A DNA stretch of 13,107 nt from Candidatus Methylomirabilis sp. (GTDB lineage Bacteria > Methylomirabilota > Methylomirabilia > Methylomirabilales > Methylomirabilaceae): the NCBI GenBank assembly GCA_041498975.1, contig JBGQJI010000063.1, forward strand, positions 1 to 13,107, read 5' to 3'. Under the pieces are notes generated by a model. The model saw only the letters and a program-made list of their open reading frames with translations. It was not told where the DNA came from and ran no database searches. Positions within the stretch are counted from its first letter, which is position 1; every line of letters begins with the position of its first letter. The position numbers and the translations under genes are program-made. Shown piece by piece: positions 3,047 through 10,972 of this stretch.

Positions 3047-3469
3047 TTATCGCCCCTCGGCGCTCTGAGCCTCCTCCTCTTCGCGTTTCTGGCCGAGGCG
3101 AACCACCTTGGCCTCCTCGCGCCGCATCTCGCACGTGCCGTTGAGGACCGCCCCGTCGCTCACCACAAGAGTCGGGGTCTTGACGGTGCCGGTGACCTGC
3201 GCGGTCGCCAACAGCTCCACACGCTTTCTGGCCACGATAGTCCCCTCCACCCTTCCGCCGACCACGAGGGATCCCACCTGGATGTCAGCCCTGACCGCTG
3301 CCGCCTGACCGATGATGAGCAGATCGCTCCCGGAGACATCCCCCTCGAACCTTCCGTCGAGTCGAACCGTCCCCTCGAACTGGAGCGTCCCGATGAAGCT
3401 GGTCCCTTCGCCCAAAAAGGCTCGAATCTCTCCGAACTCTTGGGATGGTACCGCCCGCTTCGAGAACAC
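3047..3469 (-). CDS. Bactofilin (polymer-forming cytoskeletal protein, CcmA family)
   Basis: Beta-helix repeats FLGEGTSFIGTLQFEGTVRLDGRFEGDV...LIIGQAAAVRADI...LVVGGRVEGTI...VTGTV...LVVSDGAVLNGTCEM. GTG start with SD AGGGGG. N-terminus MFSKR. Confidence 0.93.
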   Translation of the reverse strand: MFSKRAVPSQEFGEIRAFLGEGTSFIGTLQFEGTVRLDGRFEGDVSGSDLLIIGQAAAVRADIQVGSLVVGGRVEGTIVARKRVELLATAQVTGTVKTPTLVVSDGAVLNGTCEMRREEAKVVRLGQKREEEEAQSAEGR

Positions 3470-3530
3470 ATGTACCCCCTTCTGAAATCGTTTTGTGCCA
3501 GCTTTATCTCACCTCGATGAGGTGCGGCCA

Positions 3531-3560
3531 ACAGTAGCACGTCCAGTCGACGGGTGTCAA
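3531..3560 (-). promoter_or_regulatory. Putative sigma70 promoter for bactofilin (and possibly iscS-mnmA)
   Basis: Minus strand TTGACA (3560-3555), 18-bp spacer ending TGc, TACTGT (3536-3531). Followed by a small palindrome CACCTC-GAT-GAGGTG (3510-3524). Confidence 0.55.
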
Positions 3561-3578
3561 ACCAGCCAATGCGCCGAA

Positions 3579-3604
3579 GGGGGTCGGGCCCCGGCCCGCC
3601 CCCC
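3579..3604 (-). terminator. GC-rich hairpin downstream of the DUF4013-like gene (weak terminator candidate)
   Basis: GGGGG-T-CGGGCC-CC-GGCCCG-CCCCC stem. No strong U-tract, so function is uncertain. Confidence 0.3.
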
Positions 3605-3654
3605 CCGTCGGGTTCCCGCGACAGGCACCCCGCCGCGGGCCGGAATCTCCCCCT

Positions 3655-4347
3655 CTACCCGGCCTCCGAGCACACCCCCCCAAAAAGCCGGGCGCCTGCA
3701 ACCATGAGATAGAACGTGAGGAACGGCCACACCAGGACGCCCAGAAATGGGATGGCTCCAACGAGCCCCGCCGCAATGAACGAGGCCATGGTGAACAGGT
3801 ATGCTGCCACGTACTCCGCAAGCACCTTCCTGATCCTTGACCATACCACCACAGGATTAAGTGCGGCTTCGACGCGGCGCTCTTCGAGGTAGCGAGCGAC
3901 GCCCATCGGGAAAAAGAACCCGAGCGTAAGCCCGGCAAGCATCCCCAGCAGCATCATGACCAGGCCCAGTATCAAGTCTCCCTTTACGAGCAGGCCAAAG
4001 CCGGAGACCACGAACAGAAGGGGGAGGATGCCGTAGACCAGGGCCAAGACAAACACGAGCAGACCCTGCACGCACAGCCCGGGCCAACGCCTCCATTCTG
4101 GCATTGCGTTCTCTCGCGGGATGGCGATCGCCCCCTGAAAGACCTGGAGCACGAAGCCCAGGGCGGGGAAGTTGCCCGCCTGTGCCAGCGGTGCCGCCTC
4201 GAGGGCCAGTTCCCGGGAGATGAGGAAGCCGAGTGCCACGAAGAGCGCTTCCAGGGTAAGGCCGATCGCCCCGCCGATGACGATCTTGGGCATTCGCTCC
4301 CGATCCTCCAGCGGGAAGGCCAATGCCCTTGCCACTCGGTTACGCAT
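3655..4347 (-). CDS. Multi-pass membrane protein, DUF4013-like
   Basis: 230 aa with several hydrophobic helices. ALAFPLEDRERMPKIVIGG, GFVLQV and MPEWRRW segments resemble my recollection of the DUF4013 pattern. Family call not verified by HMM. Confidence 0.7.
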   Translation of the reverse strand: MRNRVARALAFPLEDRERMPKIVIGGAIGLTLEALFVALGFLISRELALEAAPLAQAGNFPALGFVLQVFQGAIAIPRENAMPEWRRWPGLCVQGLLVFVLALVYGILPLLFVVSGFGLLVKGDLILGLVMMLLGMLAGLTLGFFFPMGVARYLEERRVEAALNPVVVWSRIRKVLAEYVAAYLFTMASFIAAGLVGAIPFLGVLVWPFLTFYLMVAGARLFGGVCSEAG

Positions 4348-4476: not shown

Positions 4477-5316
4477 TTAGCCGCGGCCGCAGATTCGCTC
4501 GTAGATCCGCTCGAGGTCCTCCATGGAGTAGAATTCCACCTCGATCGTCCCGCCTGCGCCTTTTCGAGCGATCTTGACCTTCGTCCCGAGCGCCTGCCGA
4601 AGGGCGTCCTCCGCTGCCCGGACCGACGGGTCGGCGGGCGGGCGGCGAGGCTGAACGCTGCTGCGCCGTCTCAGCCGCCTGACGAGCGCTTCGGTGGCCC
4701 GCACCGACAGGCCAAGCCGAGCCACCTCGTCGCGGGCCTTGAGTTGGTCGGCCGCCCGCTCCAAGCCAAGCAGCGCGCGGGCGTGTCCTTCGGAGAGAGC
4801 GCCCGCGACCAGGTCGGCCCGGACCTGCTTGGGGAGCCTGAGAAGCCTGAGCGCATTCGCCACAGAGGAGCGCTCGCGCCCCAACCGCTTGGCCACCTCT
4901 TCCTGGGTCAAGCCGAACTCTTCCTGAAGCCTGAAATATGCCTCGGCCCGCTCGATCGGATTCAGGTCCTCTCGCTGCAGGTTCTCAACGAGCGCCACCT
5001 CAAGCGCCTCACCGCTGGAGAGCTCTTTCACGACAGCGGGGATCGAGCCCAGTCCCGCCATCCGTGCTGCCCTGAGGCGCCTTTCCCCGGCCACCACCTC
5101 TAGCCGACCCCCCTCCCGGCGGAGGATGATGGGCGAGAGCACCCCGTGGATCTTGATGGAATCCGCCAGCTCCTTCAGCTTGGCATCGTCCATGGAGCGG
5201 CGGGGCTGGAGCCTTCCCGGCGCGACCTCCTCGATGGGAACCTGAATCGCCCCGGAGCGATCGGCTCCGGGGATCAGTGTCTCAAGCCCCCTGCCGAGGG
5301 CTCTGCGCTGTGGCAT
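4477..5316 (-). CDS. parB: Chromosome partitioning CTPase ParB (Spo0J)
   Basis: N-terminal ParA-binding LGRGL, QPRR, GERRLRAA (CTP box), ENLQREDL, HTH TQEEVAKRLGRERSSVANALRLL, SEGHARALL. SD AGGAGA. Overlaps the parA 3' end. Confidence 0.97.
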   Translation of the reverse strand: MPQRRALGRGLETLIPGADRSGAIQVPIEEVAPGRLQPRRSMDDAKLKELADSIKIHGVLSPIILRREGGRLEVVAGERRLRAARMAGLGSIPAVVKELSSGEALEVALVENLQREDLNPIERAEAYFRLQEEFGLTQEEVAKRLGRERSSVANALRLLRLPKQVRADLVAGALSEGHARALLGLERAADQLKARDEVARLGLSVRATEALVRRLRRRSSVQPRRPPADPSVRAAEDALRQALGTKVKIARKGAGGTIEVEFYSMEDLERIYERICGRG

Positions 5317-6061
5317 CGATTATCTCCTTGGCCAGGCGGAGGTAGCTCTCGGCCCCCGATGAGCGGATGTCATACAGAATCACCGGCTTGCCGAAGCTGG
5401 GGGCCTCGCTCAGGCGCACGTTTCGGGGGATCACCGTTCGGAAGACCTGACGCGGGAAGTGGCGCCGCACCTCCTCCTCCACCTGCCCGCAGAGATTGAG
5501 CCTGGAGTCATACATGGTCAGGAGGATCCCCTCTATCTCCAGGCCGGGGTTCAGCCTCATTCGACAGAGACGGACCGCCTCGATGATCCGGGCCAATCCC
5601 TCCAGGGCGTAGTATTCACACTGAAGCGGGATGAGGACGGAGTGTGCGGCGGCCAGGGCATTGACAGTCAGCAGGCCAAGGGACGGCGGGCAATCGATCA
5701 GGATGTAGGCGTACCCTTCAACGCCGGCGCTGAGCGCCTCCCTCAGGCGGGCCTCCCGTCGCGGGCTACCGGCCAGCTCCATCTCCGCCCCGATCAGCCG
5801 GTCCCCCGCGGGGACCAGATCAAGCCCGGGGGCCGAGGTTGGCCGCACGGCCTCGGCGACCTTCGCCTCCCCCGTGAGCAGCTCATAGGCCGCCGGCGCT
5901 GCCTCGTGCTCGACCCCCAGCCCGCTGGTTGCGTTCCCTTGGGGGTCGATGTCGAGGAGGAGCGTCCGCCTCTCGGCCGCCGCGAGGCACGCGGCCAGGT
6001 TCACTGCCGTGGTGGTCTTGCCGACCCCGCCTTTTTGATTTGCGATGGCGATGATGCGCGT
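5282..6061 (-). CDS. parA: Chromosome partitioning ATPase ParA (Soj); start codon non-canonical or uncertain
   Basis: The frame extends upstream of the track's GTG (6004) to RIIAIANQKGGVGKTTTAVN (deviant Walker A). Also DIDPQGNAT, DCPPSLG, QCEYYALEG, IPRNVRLSEAPSFG. In-frame TAA at 6077-6079. Start placed at ACG 6061, 6 nt after GGGAGG. Confidence 0.93.
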   Translation of the reverse strand, partial: TRIIAIANQKGGVGKTTTAVNLAACLAAAERRTLLLDIDPQGNATSGLGVEHEAAPAAYELLTGEAKVAEAVRPTSAPGLDLVPAGDRLIGAEMELAGSPRREARLREALSAGVEGYAYILIDCPPSLGLLTVNALAAAHSVLIPLQCEYYALEGLARIIEAVRLCRMRLNPGLEIEGILLTMYDSRLNLCGQVEEEVRRHFPRQVFRTVIPRNVRLSEAPSFGKPVILYDIRSSGAESYLRLAKEIIDATAQSPRQGA

Positions 6062-6087
6062 CGCCGCCCTCCCTGTTTAGAGGGGTA

Positions 6088-6116
6088 AGGATACCACAGC
6101 CGCAGTCCGGGACAAA
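6088..6116 (-). promoter_or_regulatory. Putative promoter of parAB
   Basis: Minus strand TTGTCC/TTTGTC, 16-17 bp spacer, extended -10 TG-g-TATCCT (6093-6088), just upstream of SD GGGAGG. Confidence 0.45.
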
Positions 6117-6132
6117 GTGGAAAGGGGGGAGA

Positions 6133-6148
6133 TGTTTCACGTGAAACA
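6133..6148. promoter_or_regulatory. parS: parS centromere site (ParB binding)
   Basis: Second perfect TGTTTCACGTGAAACA palindrome, upstream of parA. Confidence 0.95.
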
Positions 6149-6227
6149 CCCGTGCCGCCGTTGATGGGGCGCGGTGCGGGCCAACGGTCGGGGACCGGTG
6201 GCCAGCGACTGGAGGCGGGCCAGACGT

Positions 6228-6893
6228 TCAGGGGGGCGGCTTCTCCGCGACAATCAGGTGGGTTGGTGGAGCACCGGCCTCGATGCCCGGAGCCTCCCGG
6301 ATCGCCGCCCTCAGCCCGAATGCAGCCAGGCGCGGGCGCAGCGCTTGAAGCGATTCCGCCGTGTGTCGACCCACCTGAAGGATCAGTCGCCCGCCGGGCG
6401 ACAGAAGCGGCGCCGCCAGGGACGCCGCGCCCGCCACCCCGCCAACCGCGCGCGCAAAGGCGACCTGATACCTTCCTCGATGCTCGGGGTCGGCGTGGAG
6501 CTGCTCGGCCCTGGCGTGAATACAGCGGACCCGGGTGAGCCCAAGCTGGCGGATGAGGTGGCGGAGGAATGCTGCCCGACGGCGCGCGGCCTCGATCAGG
6601 AGCATGTCGATCTCAGGGTAGCAGATCTTCAGCACCAGACCGGGGAAGCCGGCGCCAGATCCGATATCCACGGCTCTTACCCACGGCTCGGGCTCGAATG
6701 CCGCCCTGTAGCTCAAAGAGCGCAGAAACCCCTCTCGGACGATCGCCTCCTCGGACTTGAGCCCGGTCAGGTTGACCCGCGGGATCCAGCGCAGCAATTC
6801 CGACAAGTACAACTTAAGCTCATCGAGCTGTGCCGGCGTCAGGAGGAGGCCGATGCGATCCAGCCCTCGGCGGAGAAGCTGCTCGCCGCTCAC
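6228..6893 (-). CDS. rsmG: 16S rRNA m7G527 methyltransferase RsmG (GidB)
   Basis: YLSELLRWIPRVNLTG, SAM motif VDIGSGAGFPGLVLKI, LIEA..RRAAFL, RAEQL, ARAV. Canonical position upstream of parAB. Start uncertain (GTG 6893 or GTG 6953). Confidence 0.93.
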   Translation of the reverse strand: MSGEQLLRRGLDRIGLLLTPAQLDELKLYLSELLRWIPRVNLTGLKSEEAIVREGFLRSLSYRAAFEPEPWVRAVDIGSGAGFPGLVLKICYPEIDMLLIEAARRRAAFLRHLIRQLGLTRVRCIHARAEQLHADPEHRGRYQVAFARAVGGVAGAASLAAPLLSPGGRLILQVGRHTAESLQALRPRLAAFGLRAAIREAPGIEAGAPPTHLIVAEKPPP

Positions 6894-6933
6894 CGCGTTG
6901 CGTTCGGCGACCCGGTCGGGGGGAGCGCCCGTC

Positions 6934-8604
6934 CTAGGCTGTCTCCGCTCCACCCGGCGCGAGCTTTCCTCGGCTCTGCAGCCAGTACTGCTGTCCGATC
7001 TGGAGCATATTGTTGACGAGCCAATAAAGGACGAGCCCGGAGGGAAAGGACCAGAACATGAAGGTGAACATGGTCGGCATCAGATAGAGCATCATCTTGG
7101 CCTGCCGCGGATCTCCGGCGGTCGGGGTCATCTTCTGCTGCAGGAACATGCTGGCGCCCATCAAGAGCGCAAGGAGGTTGAAGGGGTAGCTCTTCAAGCC
7201 CCAGATGTCGATGGTGAACAGCGCATCCGGCTGCGAGAGATCCTTGATCCAGAGGAAGCGGGCCCGCCACATCTCCACAGAGCTCGAGAGGGCGTTGTAC
7301 AGGGCAATGAAGATCGGGATCTGCAGTAGCATCGGAAGACAGCCGCCCATCGGGTTGACCCCGTGCTTCTTGTACAGCTCCATCGTTTCCTGCTGCTTCT
7401 TTTGTGGGTTGTTCTTGTATCGCTCCTGCAGGGCCGCGAGCTTCGGCTGGAGGGCCTGCATCGCTTGCATCGATCGCAGGCTCTTCGCGGTCAGCGGATG
7501 GAAGACGACCTTCTGAAGCAGTGAGACGAGGATGATGGCGGCGCCGTAATTGCCGCTGAAGCGGTGCAGAAACCGGAGAAGATAGAGCGCGGGGCGGGCC
7601 AGGATGTCGAACCACCCGAGGTCCAGGAGCTTCTCCAGGTCCGGGCCGGCCGCCTTCAGCCGATCGAGCTCCTTCGGCCCGGCATACAGCGCGAAGCGCT
7701 CGCTCACCTCTCTCGCTGGCTGAATAGTCTGGGCGCGGGCCGCCAGGGCAACGAGGGGCCGCCCCGACGGCCCTTTCCTGACCGTGGCCTCGGCGCCTTT
7801 GCCCGCGGCGGGCATAAGCGCCGCGGCGAAGTACTGGTCCTGAAGCGCTGTCCACGACACCGCGCCGCTGTGGGTGGAAACCCCTTGAAGCTTCTCGACA
7901 TCGTCCGTAACGCGACGACCGTCCACCCAGCTTGTGGGTGGGAGGAGGCGCGCCTGCTGTTTGTCGGGGCTGTCATGGAACCCCGGGCCCCAGGCTATCT
8001 CGGGGGCGATGGTCAGCGGCTTTTGCCCAGTGTTTTTCCAGAGGAGCTGGATCTCGACAAGGTAGCTGTCGCCCTTGAAGGTGAGGCGCTTCGTCAGTTG
8101 AAGCGGGCCGCCCCCCCGCGATGAGAAGACGATCGAGCCGGTCTCGGCCGGCGAGCGCAGGTCGAGGTGTTCCTTGTCGACGTCGAAGTCCGGGGGCGCC
8201 GCCTCCTCCAGTCTCCCGCTCCACGCGAACAGAGGGCCCAATGGGCCGGTCGAAAGAGCTACCAGGTCCACAGCTTGCCCATCCGCGAGCGTATACCGTT
8301 TGACCCGCCAACTCTTCAGCACCCCGCCGCGCGTGGTGAAGATGGCTCTCACGGTTTCGGTCTCGACCACGACCTCTCGCTCCGGCACCCTCGTCTGCGC
8401 TGCTCGGCCCTGCGGTGCAGCCAGCGGAAATGGTGCGACTGCCTGCTGGGGCGTGGCGGACTTCGCTGGCAGAGTCGTCGCGGCCTCCTTCGCCCGGGAT
8501 GGTGGCTCCTCCGGGCGTGGGAGGAAGTACTGGTAGCCGAAGAATATCAAGACCACCAGGATGGTCGCAATTAACGCCCGCTGTTCAGTTGACAAGTCTC
8601 TCAA
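6934..8604 (-). CDS. yidC: Membrane protein insertase YidC (long form with periplasmic domain)
   Basis: N-terminal TM, periplasmic domain (DQYFAAAL, LYAGPKE), GNYGAAII, NPMGGCLPMLLQIPIFIALY, WIKDLSQPD, FPSGLVLYWLVNN. TTG start at 8604 or 8595. Confidence 0.97.
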   Translation of the reverse strand: MRDLSTEQRALIATILVVLIFFGYQYFLPRPEEPPSRAKEAATTLPAKSATPQQAVAPFPLAAPQGRAAQTRVPEREVVVETETVRAIFTTRGGVLKSWRVKRYTLADGQAVDLVALSTGPLGPLFAWSGRLEEAAPPDFDVDKEHLDLRSPAETGSIVFSSRGGGPLQLTKRLTFKGDSYLVEIQLLWKNTGQKPLTIAPEIAWGPGFHDSPDKQQARLLPPTSWVDGRRVTDDVEKLQGVSTHSGAVSWTALQDQYFAAALMPAAGKGAEATVRKGPSGRPLVALAARAQTIQPAREVSERFALYAGPKELDRLKAAGPDLEKLLDLGWFDILARPALYLLRFLHRFSGNYGAAIILVSLLQKVVFHPLTAKSLRSMQAMQALQPKLAALQERYKNNPQKKQQETMELYKKHGVNPMGGCLPMLLQIPIFIALYNALSSSVEMWRARFLWIKDLSQPDALFTIDIWGLKSYPFNLLALLMGASMFLQQKMTPTAGDPRQAKMMLYLMPTMFTFMFWSFPSGLVLYWLVNNMLQIGQQYWLQSRGKLAPGGAETA

Positions 8605-8638: not shown

Positions 8639-8854
8639 TTATCTCACTGGGTCATATCCGCCCTGGTGCCACGGGTGACATCGGGCGAGACGCCGCGAGG
8701 CCTGTAGCAGGCCTCGCGCGAAGCCGTGCCGGCCGATCGCCTCACGGGCATAGTCGGCACAGGAGGGGTAGAACCGGCAGGCCGGGAAGAGCATCGGGGA
8801 AACGGTCTTCTTGTACAGCAGCAGAGCCCACCTTGCGATGCTGGCCGGCGTCAT
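8639..8854 (-). CDS. yidD: Membrane protein insertion efficiency factor YidD
   Basis: YKKTVSP..PACRFYPSCADYAREAI..HG..RG....RRLARCHPW..GGYDPV. ATG at 8854 overlaps the rnpA TGA (ATGA coupling). Confidence 0.93.
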   Translation of the reverse strand: MTPASIARWALLLYKKTVSPMLFPACRFYPSCADYAREAIGRHGFARGLLQASRRLARCHPWHQGGYDPVR

Positions 8855-9183
8855 CGTGTTGAAGCTGCCCCAGTGTGTTGAGGAGGGAAAAGCGCGCAAG
8901 CCCGACTCAGGAGTTTTGAGAGCTGGTCTCTCATCTCGCGGCGGGTGAGAGCGCCGATCCCTCCTCGGTTGGTGATCACGATGGAAATCCTTTCCGGCAA
9001 CTTGTCGCGATAAACCCGAAACATTTCCCGCGCCTGGCGCTTTGCCCGATTCCTAACGGTTGAGGGCCCCGCACGGACTCCAAAGGCCAACGTGAGCCCC
9101 TGTTTTTTTGTTGACGAAAACCCAGCATAAAGGGTAAAATATATTCCGCTGATGCCCTCTCCAGATCGGCTCGAGCGGCCCAA
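8851..9183 (-). CDS. rnpA: Ribonuclease P protein component RnpA, divergent with uncertain N-terminus
   Basis: RNR motif GPSTVRNRAKRQAREMFR and position between rpmH and yidD. TTG at 9183 is the first canonical start after the rpmH stop; the only alternative is ATG 9318 inside rpmH. Confidence 0.75.
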   Translation of the reverse strand: MGRSSRSGEGISGIYFTLYAGFSSTKKQGLTLAFGVRAGPSTVRNRAKRQAREMFRVYRDKLPERISIVITNRGGIGALTRREMRDQLSKLLSRACALFPPQHTGAASTR

Positions 9184-9259
9184 CCTGGCGGCCCCTGACG
9201 ACCGGGTGCTCCGTCGAGATCGATTGGGGCTGATGTGGTGGCCTGCGGGGGCGGGGGGG

Positions 9260-9394
9260 TTAAACGGCGAGCCTTTTTCGGCCCTTGGCCTTCCTTCGTT
9301 TGATGACGTTCCGGCCATTAGGAGTGCTCATTCGCGTGAGAAATCCATGGGTCCGTTTTCGCTTGCTCTTGTTAGGTTGATATGTCCGCTTCAT
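9260..9394 (-). CDS. rpmH: 50S ribosomal protein L34
   Basis: Manual translation [44 protein letters not shown] (44 aa, below the ORF-track cutoff). SD GAGGA. Confidence 0.98.
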
Positions 9395-9457
9395 GGCCCA
9401 TCCTCATTTGGCAGTTACGGTCCGTTCCGCTTCGTTGGCGTTGGAAAAGCAACGTGG

Positions 9458-9486
9458 AGTATAGCCGTCAGGGCATGTGCTGTCAA
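9458..9486 (-). promoter_or_regulatory. sigma70 promoter of the rpmH operon
   Basis: Minus strand TTGACA (9486-9481), 17 bp, TATACT (9463-9458). One mismatch from consensus. Confidence 0.85.
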
Positions 9487-9559
9487 GCCGCAAATGGTTG
9501 TGGCCACCCGAGCAGGGCATGGGTTTTTCGCTTTCTCTGGTTCTAGCTCAATATCGTGC

Positions 9560-9850
9560 GCAACCATTTGAATTTAAAGTGAGTAGTGGTTTTCCACAGG
9601 TGTGGAAAAGATGTGCGTAAGTGTAGTGCTGGCCTTGTCCACGGTTCTCTTTGGATAGCCTGTAGACTCTTGTTGGTGTTTCATTGGGGTTGCGATGAGT
9701 CCACAACCCATGTGGTGGGTCCATCCCGAAAAAGAGACCGTGTTTTCGCGGTCTCAGGGGTTCATCCACATTTCAAGACAGCCCTATTACTACTCCGATC
9801 TTTTTAAGTTCTAAAGAACAGAAAAATAAGTAAGAGAAGAAGGGGCTGCT
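9560..9850. other. oriC: Probable chromosomal replication origin oriC
   Basis: DnaA boxes (TTWTNCACA): TTTTCCACA 9590-9598 (+, perfect), TGTGGAAAA 9601-9609 (-, perfect), TGTGCGTAA 9612-9620 (1 mismatch), TTGTCCACG 9635-9643 (2 mismatches), TCATCCACA 9762-9770 (1 mismatch). GCCC plus trio-like CTATTACTACTC at 9781-9795, then an AT-rich tract. Genes diverge on both sides and parS sites are nearby. Confidence 0.8.
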
Positions 9851-9871
9851 GTTTAGAGCATCGGGGGATTA

Positions 9872-10972
9872 ATGCATATTCGAGTGCTACGGGATGATCT
9901 CTTCGGCGGTGTAGGACCGATCCAGGGTGTTGTAGAAACCAAGCGAAGCCTTCCAATTCTCTCCCACCTGCTCCTCGAAGCTCTCCCCTCACACCTTTCT
10001 GTTTTCGGTACAGACTTGGATGTCGGAGTCCGTAAGCGGCTTCCAGCGCAGGTCCTCAAAGAAGGCTCGATCGCGCTTTCCGCTAGAAAACTTTACGAGA
10101 TCATTCGAGAACTCCCCGCTGCAATGGTGGAGCTCACGGTTGATTCAGACCTCACAGCAACCATCGCGTGTGGAAGCTCTGAGTTCAGGATGAAAGGCCT
10201 GCCCAGAGATGATTTTCCTTCGATCCGCGAACCCAAGGACAGTTATATCGTCCTCGATCGCCGCCTGTTCCGCGACATGATCCGCCGGACAGTGTTTGCT
10301 GTCTCTTCCGACCAGACCCGCTATACGTTGAATGGGATCCTCTTTCGAGCGACGCCGAAGGAGGTGAGGATGGTTGCCACCGATGGGCACAGGCTCGCCA
10401 TCTCGACGCTGGAGACCGAGGTGACCAAAGAGAGCAGGCCAATCGAGGCGATCATCCCCCGAAAGGCTGCGGCGGAGATGCTGAAACTCTTGAGGGAGGA
10501 GCCCGGCGAGATCGAGATCGAGACGGCGGAGAGCCATCTGTTGTTGAGCTCCGACCAGACGTTGATCGACGCGCGCCTCATCGAGGGGCAATTTCCCAAT
10601 TACGAACAAGTCATCCCCACAACTGCCACCAAGCAGGTCACGTTGAATCGAGAGGCCTTCTTGGCCGGGCTTCGCCGCACATCCACCATCCTCGGTGAGC
10701 GGACCGTCCCCACCACAATGGAGTTGAAACCCGGGAAGCTTCTCCTCAGTTGCGTCAACCTCGACCTCGGCGAAGCGCGGGAGCGCCTTGATGTTGAGTA
10801 TCAGCACGAAGAGATGACGGTGGGGTTCAACGCCCGCTACATCCTCGACTTTTTGAGCGTGGCCGATGGCGAGCAGGTCACCATCCATCTCCAGGACGCG
10901 CTCAGCCCAGCCCTGTTCCGGGCGAAGGACGACAAGAGATATAGCTGCGTCATCATGCCGATGAGGATATAG
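9872..10972 (+). CDS. dnaN: DNA polymerase III beta sliding clamp
   Basis: 366 aa. SLPILSHLL, GTDLD, FAVSSDQTRYTLNG, VATDGHRL, IIPRK, RLIEGQFPNYEQVIP, GFNARYILD, C-terminal IMPMRI. Confidence 0.98.
   Translation: MHIRVLRDDLFGGVGPIQGVVETKRSLPILSHLLLEALPSHLSVFGTDLDVGVRKRLPAQVLKEGSIALSARKLYEIIRELPAAMVELTVDSDLTATIACGSSEFRMKGLPRDDFPSIREPKDSYIVLDRRLFRDMIRRTVFAVSSDQTRYTLNGILFRATPKEVRMVATDGHRLAISTLETEVTKESRPIEAIIPRKAAAEMLKLLREEPGEIEIETAESHLLLSSDQTLIDARLIEGQFPNYEQVIPTTATKQVTLNREAFLAGLRRTSTILGERTVPTTMELKPGKLLLSCVNLDLGEARERLDVEYQHEEMTVGFNARYILDFLSVADGEQVTIHLQDALSPALFRAKDDKRYSCVIMPMRI

Follow-up and report, generated by a model that had tools for sequence, protein, structure and literature searches.

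Chromosomal partition systems of the ParA/Soj–ParB/Spo0J–parS type are situated near the replication origin, and the locus described here, from a Candidatus Methylomirabilis genome, shares with them the gene order yidC–rsmG–parA–parB, a parS palindrome and the KGGVGKT motif of the ATPase. The sole difference lies in the start codon of parA, the place of which is taken by an ACG triplet. To our knowledge, ACG is absent from the start codons of NCBI table 11. ACG starts do occur in eukaryotic and viral mRNAs, such as those of AAV VP2 and Sendai virus C', and the editing of ACG to AUG in organelles is well known. AAV VP2, Sendai virus C' and the plant organelles resemble parA in having ACG at a functional initiation site, but these eukaryotic, viral and organellar cases involve scanning or editing, whereas bacterial initiation directed by a Shine-Dalgarno sequence (SD) is proposed for parA.

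Among bacterial genes, infC, with its AUU or AUC start, is likewise a housekeeping gene in which a good SD precedes a conserved non-canonical start codon, and the restraint exerted by IF3 would be expected to act on parA as well. The two genes differ in that the ACG of parA would be mismatched at the second base and the infC codon at the third, and in that infC is subject to IF3 autoregulation, such a loop being neither known nor demonstrated in the case of ParA. According to PMC5499595, IF3 rejects non-canonical triplets, infC is autoregulated through its AUU/AUC start, and the synthesis of the T7 0.3 protein is severely reduced by a change from AUG to ACG. The study of Hecht et al. (bioRxiv 10.1101/063800) places ACG in E. 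coli reporters in a group initiating at 0.1–1% of AUG, and AUC, AUA, AUU and CUG at 1–2% of AUG; it also reports an N-terminal Met, detected by mass spectrometry, at an ACG start in E. coli. The E. coli reporters and the T7 gene 0.3 mutant show that bacterial ribosomes are able to initiate weakly at ACG, with Met. They are, however, engineered or mutant cases, whereas the ACG of parA occurs in nature and has persisted throughout a deep clade. In a non-exhaustive literature search, neither a conserved ACG start occurring naturally in a chromosomal gene of bacteria nor any work on start codons in Methylomirabilis was found.

The stretch of DNA analysed, here called the window, comprises 13,107 nucleotides and represents contig C63 in a MAG that is fragmented (241 contigs) and 84.9% complete. 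Its minus-strand genes follow the order rnpA, yidC, rsmG, parA, parB, a DUF4013 protein gene and a bactofilin gene, with dnaN and gyrB on the plus strand, forming an origin-type neighbourhood (Table 1). The bactofilin and DUF4013 genes lie downstream of parB on the same strand (window 3047–4347). At the other end (window 8851–10972), rnpA (minus) and dnaN (plus) diverge across approximately 550 nt without dnaA between them, and gyrB follows directly after dnaN. The gene parB overlaps the 3' end of parA by 35 nt, and 166 nt separate rsmG from the ACG. The product of parA matches the Pfam families AAA_31 (1.2e-57) and CbiA (2.8e-28) and contains the P-loop motif KGGxGK[ST] of ParA/Soj ATPases; parB is found in the same operon and a candidate parS nearby. 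The palindrome TGTTTCACGTGAAACA is one that we take to be parS, on the basis of the parS consensus. In the protein database, related proteins are named ParA family protein or chromosome partitioning protein of Candidatus Methylomirabilis (NC10).

Table 1. Features of the parA start region and of the adjoining genes, in window positions.
Feature	Position	Strand	Remarks
parB	4477..5316	minus	ATG at 5316; Pfam ParB_N, HTH_ParB, ParB_C
parA (Soj-type ParA ATPase)	5282..6061	minus	From candidate start ACG to TGA stop: 259 codons plus stop
First canonical start (GTG) in parA frame	6002..6004	minus	Downstream of Walker A
Deviant Walker A motif KGGVGKT	6014..6034	minus	Read from the translation
ATC, alternative near-cognate start	6053..6055	minus	12 nt 3' of SD
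ACG, candidate start	6059..6061	minus	Same column as ATG/GTG start of sister clade
Shine-Dalgarno GGGAGG	6068..6073	minus	6 nt 5' of ACG
In-frame TAA	6077..6079	minus	Closes frame 5' of ACG; also in independent assemblies
Extended -10-like box TGgTATCCT	6088..6096	minus	Overlapped by upstream in-frame GTG (6097-6095)
-35-like hexamer TTGTCC	6110..6115	minus	16 nt before -10-like hexamer; conserved CTTTGTYCC block
parS (assumed)	6133..6148	minus	Perfect 16-nt palindrome; 72 nt upstream of parA start column
rsmG (gidB)	6228..6953	minus	Upstream of parA; GidB 7.2e-34

On the minus strand the start region reads TAA(6079-6077) ACA GGG AGG GCG GCG ACG(6061-6059) CGC ATC ATC GCC ATC GCA AAT CAA AAA GGC GGG GTC GGC AAG ACC, and the conceptual translation of this frame from TAA onward is a stop followed by TGRAATRIIAIANQKGGVGKTT... 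An earlier note on this DNA had described parA as a frame without a canonical start before its Walker A motif, and the re-read sequence bears this out. Between the in-frame stop and the motif there is no ATG, GTG or TTG, and the first such codon is the GTG at 6004. The TAA is likewise confirmed and excludes an upstream start for the window parA. The sole canonical-start ORF of the frame (5282..6004, 240 aa) begins at this GTG and is devoid of KGGVGKT. Also the 6-nt spacing between GGGAGG and ACG, the length of 259 aa counted from ACG, and the strong SD and ATG of parB (AAGGAG at 5329–5324, 7 nt before the ATG) agree with what the note had given, which is correct in all its details. Being a defined codon state and not a matter of chance, the ACG gains its weight by the comparison with related loci.

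A protein search covering 41 genomes (the window's own and 40 relatives) found parA in 39. The parA locus was inspected in 30 matches together with the window's own, nine full-length matches of other families being left out. The genus comprised 20 genomes including the window's own, of which one (67% complete) gave no parA match. Within the 19 genus genomes with parA, the start column holds ACG in seven (the window's genome, G015, G016, G002, G014, G009 and G005), ATG in 11 and GTG in one. The 11 loci examined in other families of this order are all canonical at the start, with GTG in nine and ATG and TTG in one each; one of these loci is that of G027 (unpublished), on which no conclusion depends. 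An SD is present 6 nt before the start column in each of the seven ACG-type genome loci (GGGAGG or GAGAGG) and in most ATG-type loci.

The metagenome scan identified 19 further loci with SD–N6–ACG and an identical upstream layout; its pattern demanded RGAGG–N6–ACG and the following codons, and the ACG state was thus preselected in these. Together, the 26 ACG-type loci (seven from genomes and 19 from metagenomes) represent 17 distinct upstream haplotypes. A second scan, of genome contigs for ACG followed by the codons of RIIAIANQKGG, gave at least 120 stretches, and 80 loci were read. ATG, GTG or TTG stands directly before the ACG in 67 of them (MTRII...), a canonical start is found farther upstream in 12, and one (L060) is masked at the spot adjacent to the ACG. 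Only L082 and L113 among these 80 belong to the ACG-type parA group, and the scan is uninformative on independent ACG starts. The ACG of the window is aligned with the start codons of its orthologs, has the same SD spacing, is conserved across species and precedes an ORF under purifying selection.

In the tree constructed of ParA only, the MRII (ATG-type) rows group as a single clade with strong support and the Thr-type rows are left as an unresolved grade, while the tree of concatenated ParA, ParB and RsmG, the product of a quick search, shows ATG-type (SH-aLRT 100) and ACG-type (91) rows as sister clades. Under either tree the distribution of ACG and ATG would fit a single change. The simplest reading is that the ACG-type clade lost the canonical codon (ATG or GTG) to ACG at its base, since the outgroups are canonical at equal SD spacing. 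Nested among the ACG-type rows are four database clusters called with MT- or VT-RIIAIANQ (P0003 and P0006 together, P0005, and P0016), and these protein calls suggest that a canonical start at codon -1 was gained separately about three times. Clusters at least 85% identical to the window ParA included none with an MRII start. The apparent gains hint that the ACG state is tolerated or suboptimal, not favoured. The history of the locus would consist of one loss of the canonical start, followed by what seem to be three or more independently acquired starts one codon upstream, with the upstream frame repeatedly opened and closed.

Judged from the sequence comparisons, non-canonical initiation of the window parA, at either ACG or ATC, is likely, and SD-directed initiation at the ACG itself is the reading preferred here, with moderate confidence. 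In the proposed mechanism, the conserved GGGAGG would set the P site of the 30S subunit on the ACG, where the sister clade has ATG or GTG. The ordinary initiator tRNA (anticodon CAU) would pair with this codon despite the mismatch at the middle base, and the product would be Met-RIIAIANQKGGVGKT..., of 259 residues, the Met presumably being inserted at the ACG. Initiation would be expected to be inefficient and sensitive to IF3. The change from ATG to ACG would have arisen once, on the branch parting two deep clades of the genus, and have been retained since.

The initiator tRNA of the genome is normal (C1xA72, three G–C pairs in the anticodon stem, anticodon CAU). No dedicated initiator tRNA reading ACG was found among the 28 tRNAs of the MAG, which is 85% complete, and tRNA-Thr(CGU) is an ordinary elongator. 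With this pair of tRNAs, reading of the ACG would fall to fMet-tRNA, the middle base being mismatched. The infC gene of the same genome has an ATC 8 nt behind AAGGAGG (G000:C27, about 20281–20320, minus strand, locus L219), at which it probably starts. The frame of infC also includes a GTG six codons upstream, overlapping the SD. The normal initiator tRNA and the probable ATC start of infC suggest that the usual IF3 logic applies in this organism.

The reading ranked second is initiation at ATC 6055 (or ATC 6052), giving Met-IAIANQKGG..., two residues shorter, with the ACG as a triplet of the 5'-UTR. AUC initiates at a higher level than the ACG group in the E. coli reporters (bioRxiv 10.1101/063800), one NCBI-named relative has been called as MIAIANQKGG... 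(P0029), and the probable start of infC in the same genome is an ATC. Initiation at ATC is nevertheless considered unlikely. The SD is located 12 nt from this ATC but 6 nt from the ACG, and the 6-nt spacing conserved in the genus and the outgroups belongs to the ACG/ATG column, by which the ATC is placed second. The shorter product would also be without the conserved Arg, and its first beta-strand would be shortened. As the ATC 6055 codon also specifies an Ile of RIIAIANQ that is conserved in all relatives, its conservation as such does not separate it as a start. The choice of ACG rather than ATC as the codon used would thus follow from the conserved SD spacing.

Upstream of the SD, most of the genus has a leader of the same order: parS, CTTTGTYCC, 16 nt, TGnTAYCCT, 13–20 nt, SD, 6 nt and the start column. 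Also the parS palindrome is kept 5' of parA in most genus loci. We infer that CTTTGTYCC and TGnTAYCCT are the -35 and extended -10 elements of a promoter. A scan of the region 5900–6400 for promoters and terminators gave no promoter-like and no terminator-like sites; it needs nine of 12 matches, and the candidate -35/-10 pair scores eight of 12 by our own count. All 17 ACG-type haplotypes have TATCCT as the -10-like hexamer, against TACCCT in those ATG-type rows in which the block is present, a difference that amounts to one shared change and is beyond statistical testing. In three ATG-type loci (L011, L013 and L017), parS and the SD are set apart by an extra stretch of approximately 100–130 nt, which contains G/C-rich inverted repeats (CCCCCTTTACGAAAGGGGGA-like) and takes the place of the -35/-10-like blocks. 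The insert may be a small repeat element.

The purine preceding the TG of the -10-like box creates an ATG or GTG, and in 11 of the 17 ACG-type haplotypes this codon lies at position -12 and is joined to the ACG by an open frame. This ATG or GTG 12 codons upstream could accordingly be the true start in the clade (MVSFPFQRGRAAT-RII...), the ACG then encoding an internal Thr. The window copy would have lost its start, having GTG followed by a TAA nonsense codon, and would be made only via leaky reinitiation or readthrough. The A that makes the codon ATG is confined to the ACG clade, gene callers choose the codon as a start (P0001, P0002, P0004 and P0007–P0013), and with no terminator found between rsmG and parA, readthrough transcripts would include it.

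A usable canonical start is, however, absent in three lineages. The window and the sister metagenome lineage L184/L188 have a stop at codon -6 (TAA and TAG, respectively), a position that holds CAA, CAG, GAA, CGA, ATT or TCA in other relatives. In L007/L181 the box is separated from the ACG by 35 nt instead of the usual 36 nt, and the sole in-frame GTGs are situated inside parS, 26 and 29 codons before the ACG, as read in L181 and L082. In L190/L198 the distance is 37 nt and codon -12 is TGA. Selection on parA stays unrelaxed in all three lineages in which the frame is broken. The open-frame haplotypes have no SD before the ATG or GTG at codon -12 but retain the one before the ACG, and the extension is freely variable at residues 4–8 when the called proteins are compared. 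The ATG-type clade keeps the same -10-like box in other frames or with stops, and if the box is a promoter, codon -12 lies outside the mRNA. As the start of the whole clade the upstream codon is quite improbable, although a ParA longer by 12 residues appears to be a real rival for the relatives with an open frame, if not for the window. The near-cognate initiation suggested in the earlier note stands as the best reading of the window parA. The sequence does not distinguish ACG from ATC 6055, and in most ACG-type relatives the open ATG or GTG upstream competes with both.

The parA frame is intact, with 256–266 codons, in all complete copies except L185, an ACG-type metagenome locus in which it is broken after 44 codons; this break may be a contig error or mark a dead copy. 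Pairwise dN/dS values (NG86) of parA among the seven ACG-type genomes range from 0.06 to 0.22, at dS from 0.07 to 0.82, and the median of the ATG-type clade is 0.086. Within the three lineages in which both copies are without a canonical start, the values are 0.079 for L001–L188 (dS 0.18), 0.175 for L190–L198 (dS 0.19) and 0.197 for L007–L181 (dS 0.08). Purifying selection in lineages having no canonical start indicates that ParA is made and needed there. A silent or decaying parA in the window, with the start codon lesioned in a dispensable gene, would agree with ACG being a very poor start in E. coli, with the strong reduction of T7 0.3 protein synthesis by the same change (PMC5499595) and with the broken L185 copy. 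Against the low dN/dS at dS up to about 0.8, also in copies without a canonical start, the intact frames of all other complete copies and the retained SD, it is very improbable.

Recoding of the mRNA by C-to-U editing, which would turn the ACG into AUG as in plant organelles, is more improbable still. Nothing speaks for it directly. The stretch or a part of it (window 5200–6400) is contained in 24 sediment-metagenome runs, none of which is on record as RNA. We know of no C-to-U editing of mRNA in bacteria. Such editing is also unnecessary given the measurable ACG initiation in E. coli (bioRxiv 10.1101/063800).

As independent data for the letters at the start codon, Logan contigs of four runs were compared with the window; one run (X1) is a possible source, and the others (X4, X6 and X8) belong to other studies. 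In each run a contig spans at least 5861–6193 with no differences and has ACG at the start column, and no alternative letters are listed at 6059–6061 or 6077–6079. A variant at 6064 stems from shorter contigs that have five and 11 other letters and resemble a related lineage. The note had allowed for a single T>C change as a recent mutation or a sequencing error, and had named as refuting its reading reads with ATG or GTG at this place or ATG or GTG in all relatives; the independent assemblies and the relatives gave neither result. Although the source genome is a fragmented MAG, an error or a private mutation is rejected, as identical contigs occur in four runs, of which only X1 is flagged as a possible source, and the ACG is common to seven species-level genomes of the genus and 19 metagenome contigs.

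Selection on the ACG codon itself was not demonstrable: among the six full-length ACG-type genome rows, 41 of the 111 four-fold sites (37%) are equally invariant. The invariance of the ACG is thus not significant, the more so as the metagenome loci were preselected for it. That the ACG is a genuine parA start kept by selection throughout the deep Candidatus Methylomirabilis clade is a tentative proposal and rather doubtful. A plausible effect of the putative ACG start would be a lowering of ParA relative to ParB.

A second gene resembling parA was sought in a crude comparison of orthologs between the first 400 kb of G008 and the window's genome (G000). It yielded 134 pairs, 24 of them flagged; parA itself was flagged by the method, and no other convincing case was found among the 134 pairs. 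The comparison spans approximately 15% of a genome and misses genes with any upstream in-frame canonical codon, and it gives weak evidence that the ACG start may be specific to parA. Two of the ORFs encountered deserve mention in their own right. In a minus-strand ORF of G000:C73 (7043–7349, reverse-complement coordinates), homology to G008 extends from the first codon after the stop (KTCAKTQEFL...), far ahead of the canonical starts of both genomes; this may reflect a selenocysteine TGA, the genome having a tRNA-Sec, or a missed start. In a minus-strand ORF of G000:C4 (8618–9977), a CTG aligns with a GTG next to the start of homology in G008. It may represent a further non-canonical start, or else an artefact produced by this crude approach.

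With no normal start codon in the window parA, and ACG as its likely substitute, ParA is misannotated by gene finders. A standard caller would give a 240-residue ParA without Walker A for the window. Among the public gene calls, P0019 (from the position of GTG 6004) and P0030 cut the protein after the P-loop, P0014 and P0015 run it through parS, and others add 12 residues from promoter-like DNA.

If SD-directed initiation at the ACG is correct and upheld by selection across the clade, parA would provide a bacterial ACG start that occurs naturally and falls outside the accepted set of start codons, kept over dS of about 0.5–0.8 in a core chromosome-segregation gene, three lineages having no other option. 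The synthesis of ParA would be weak and dependent on IF3, and would set the ratio of ParA to ParB independently of transcription, with a -10 hexamer (TATCCT) that is nearer to the consensus than the TACCCT of the sister clade as a partial compensation. With the parA of the ACG clade, near-cognate initiation and proofreading by IF3 could then be studied outside E. coli in a clean natural setting.
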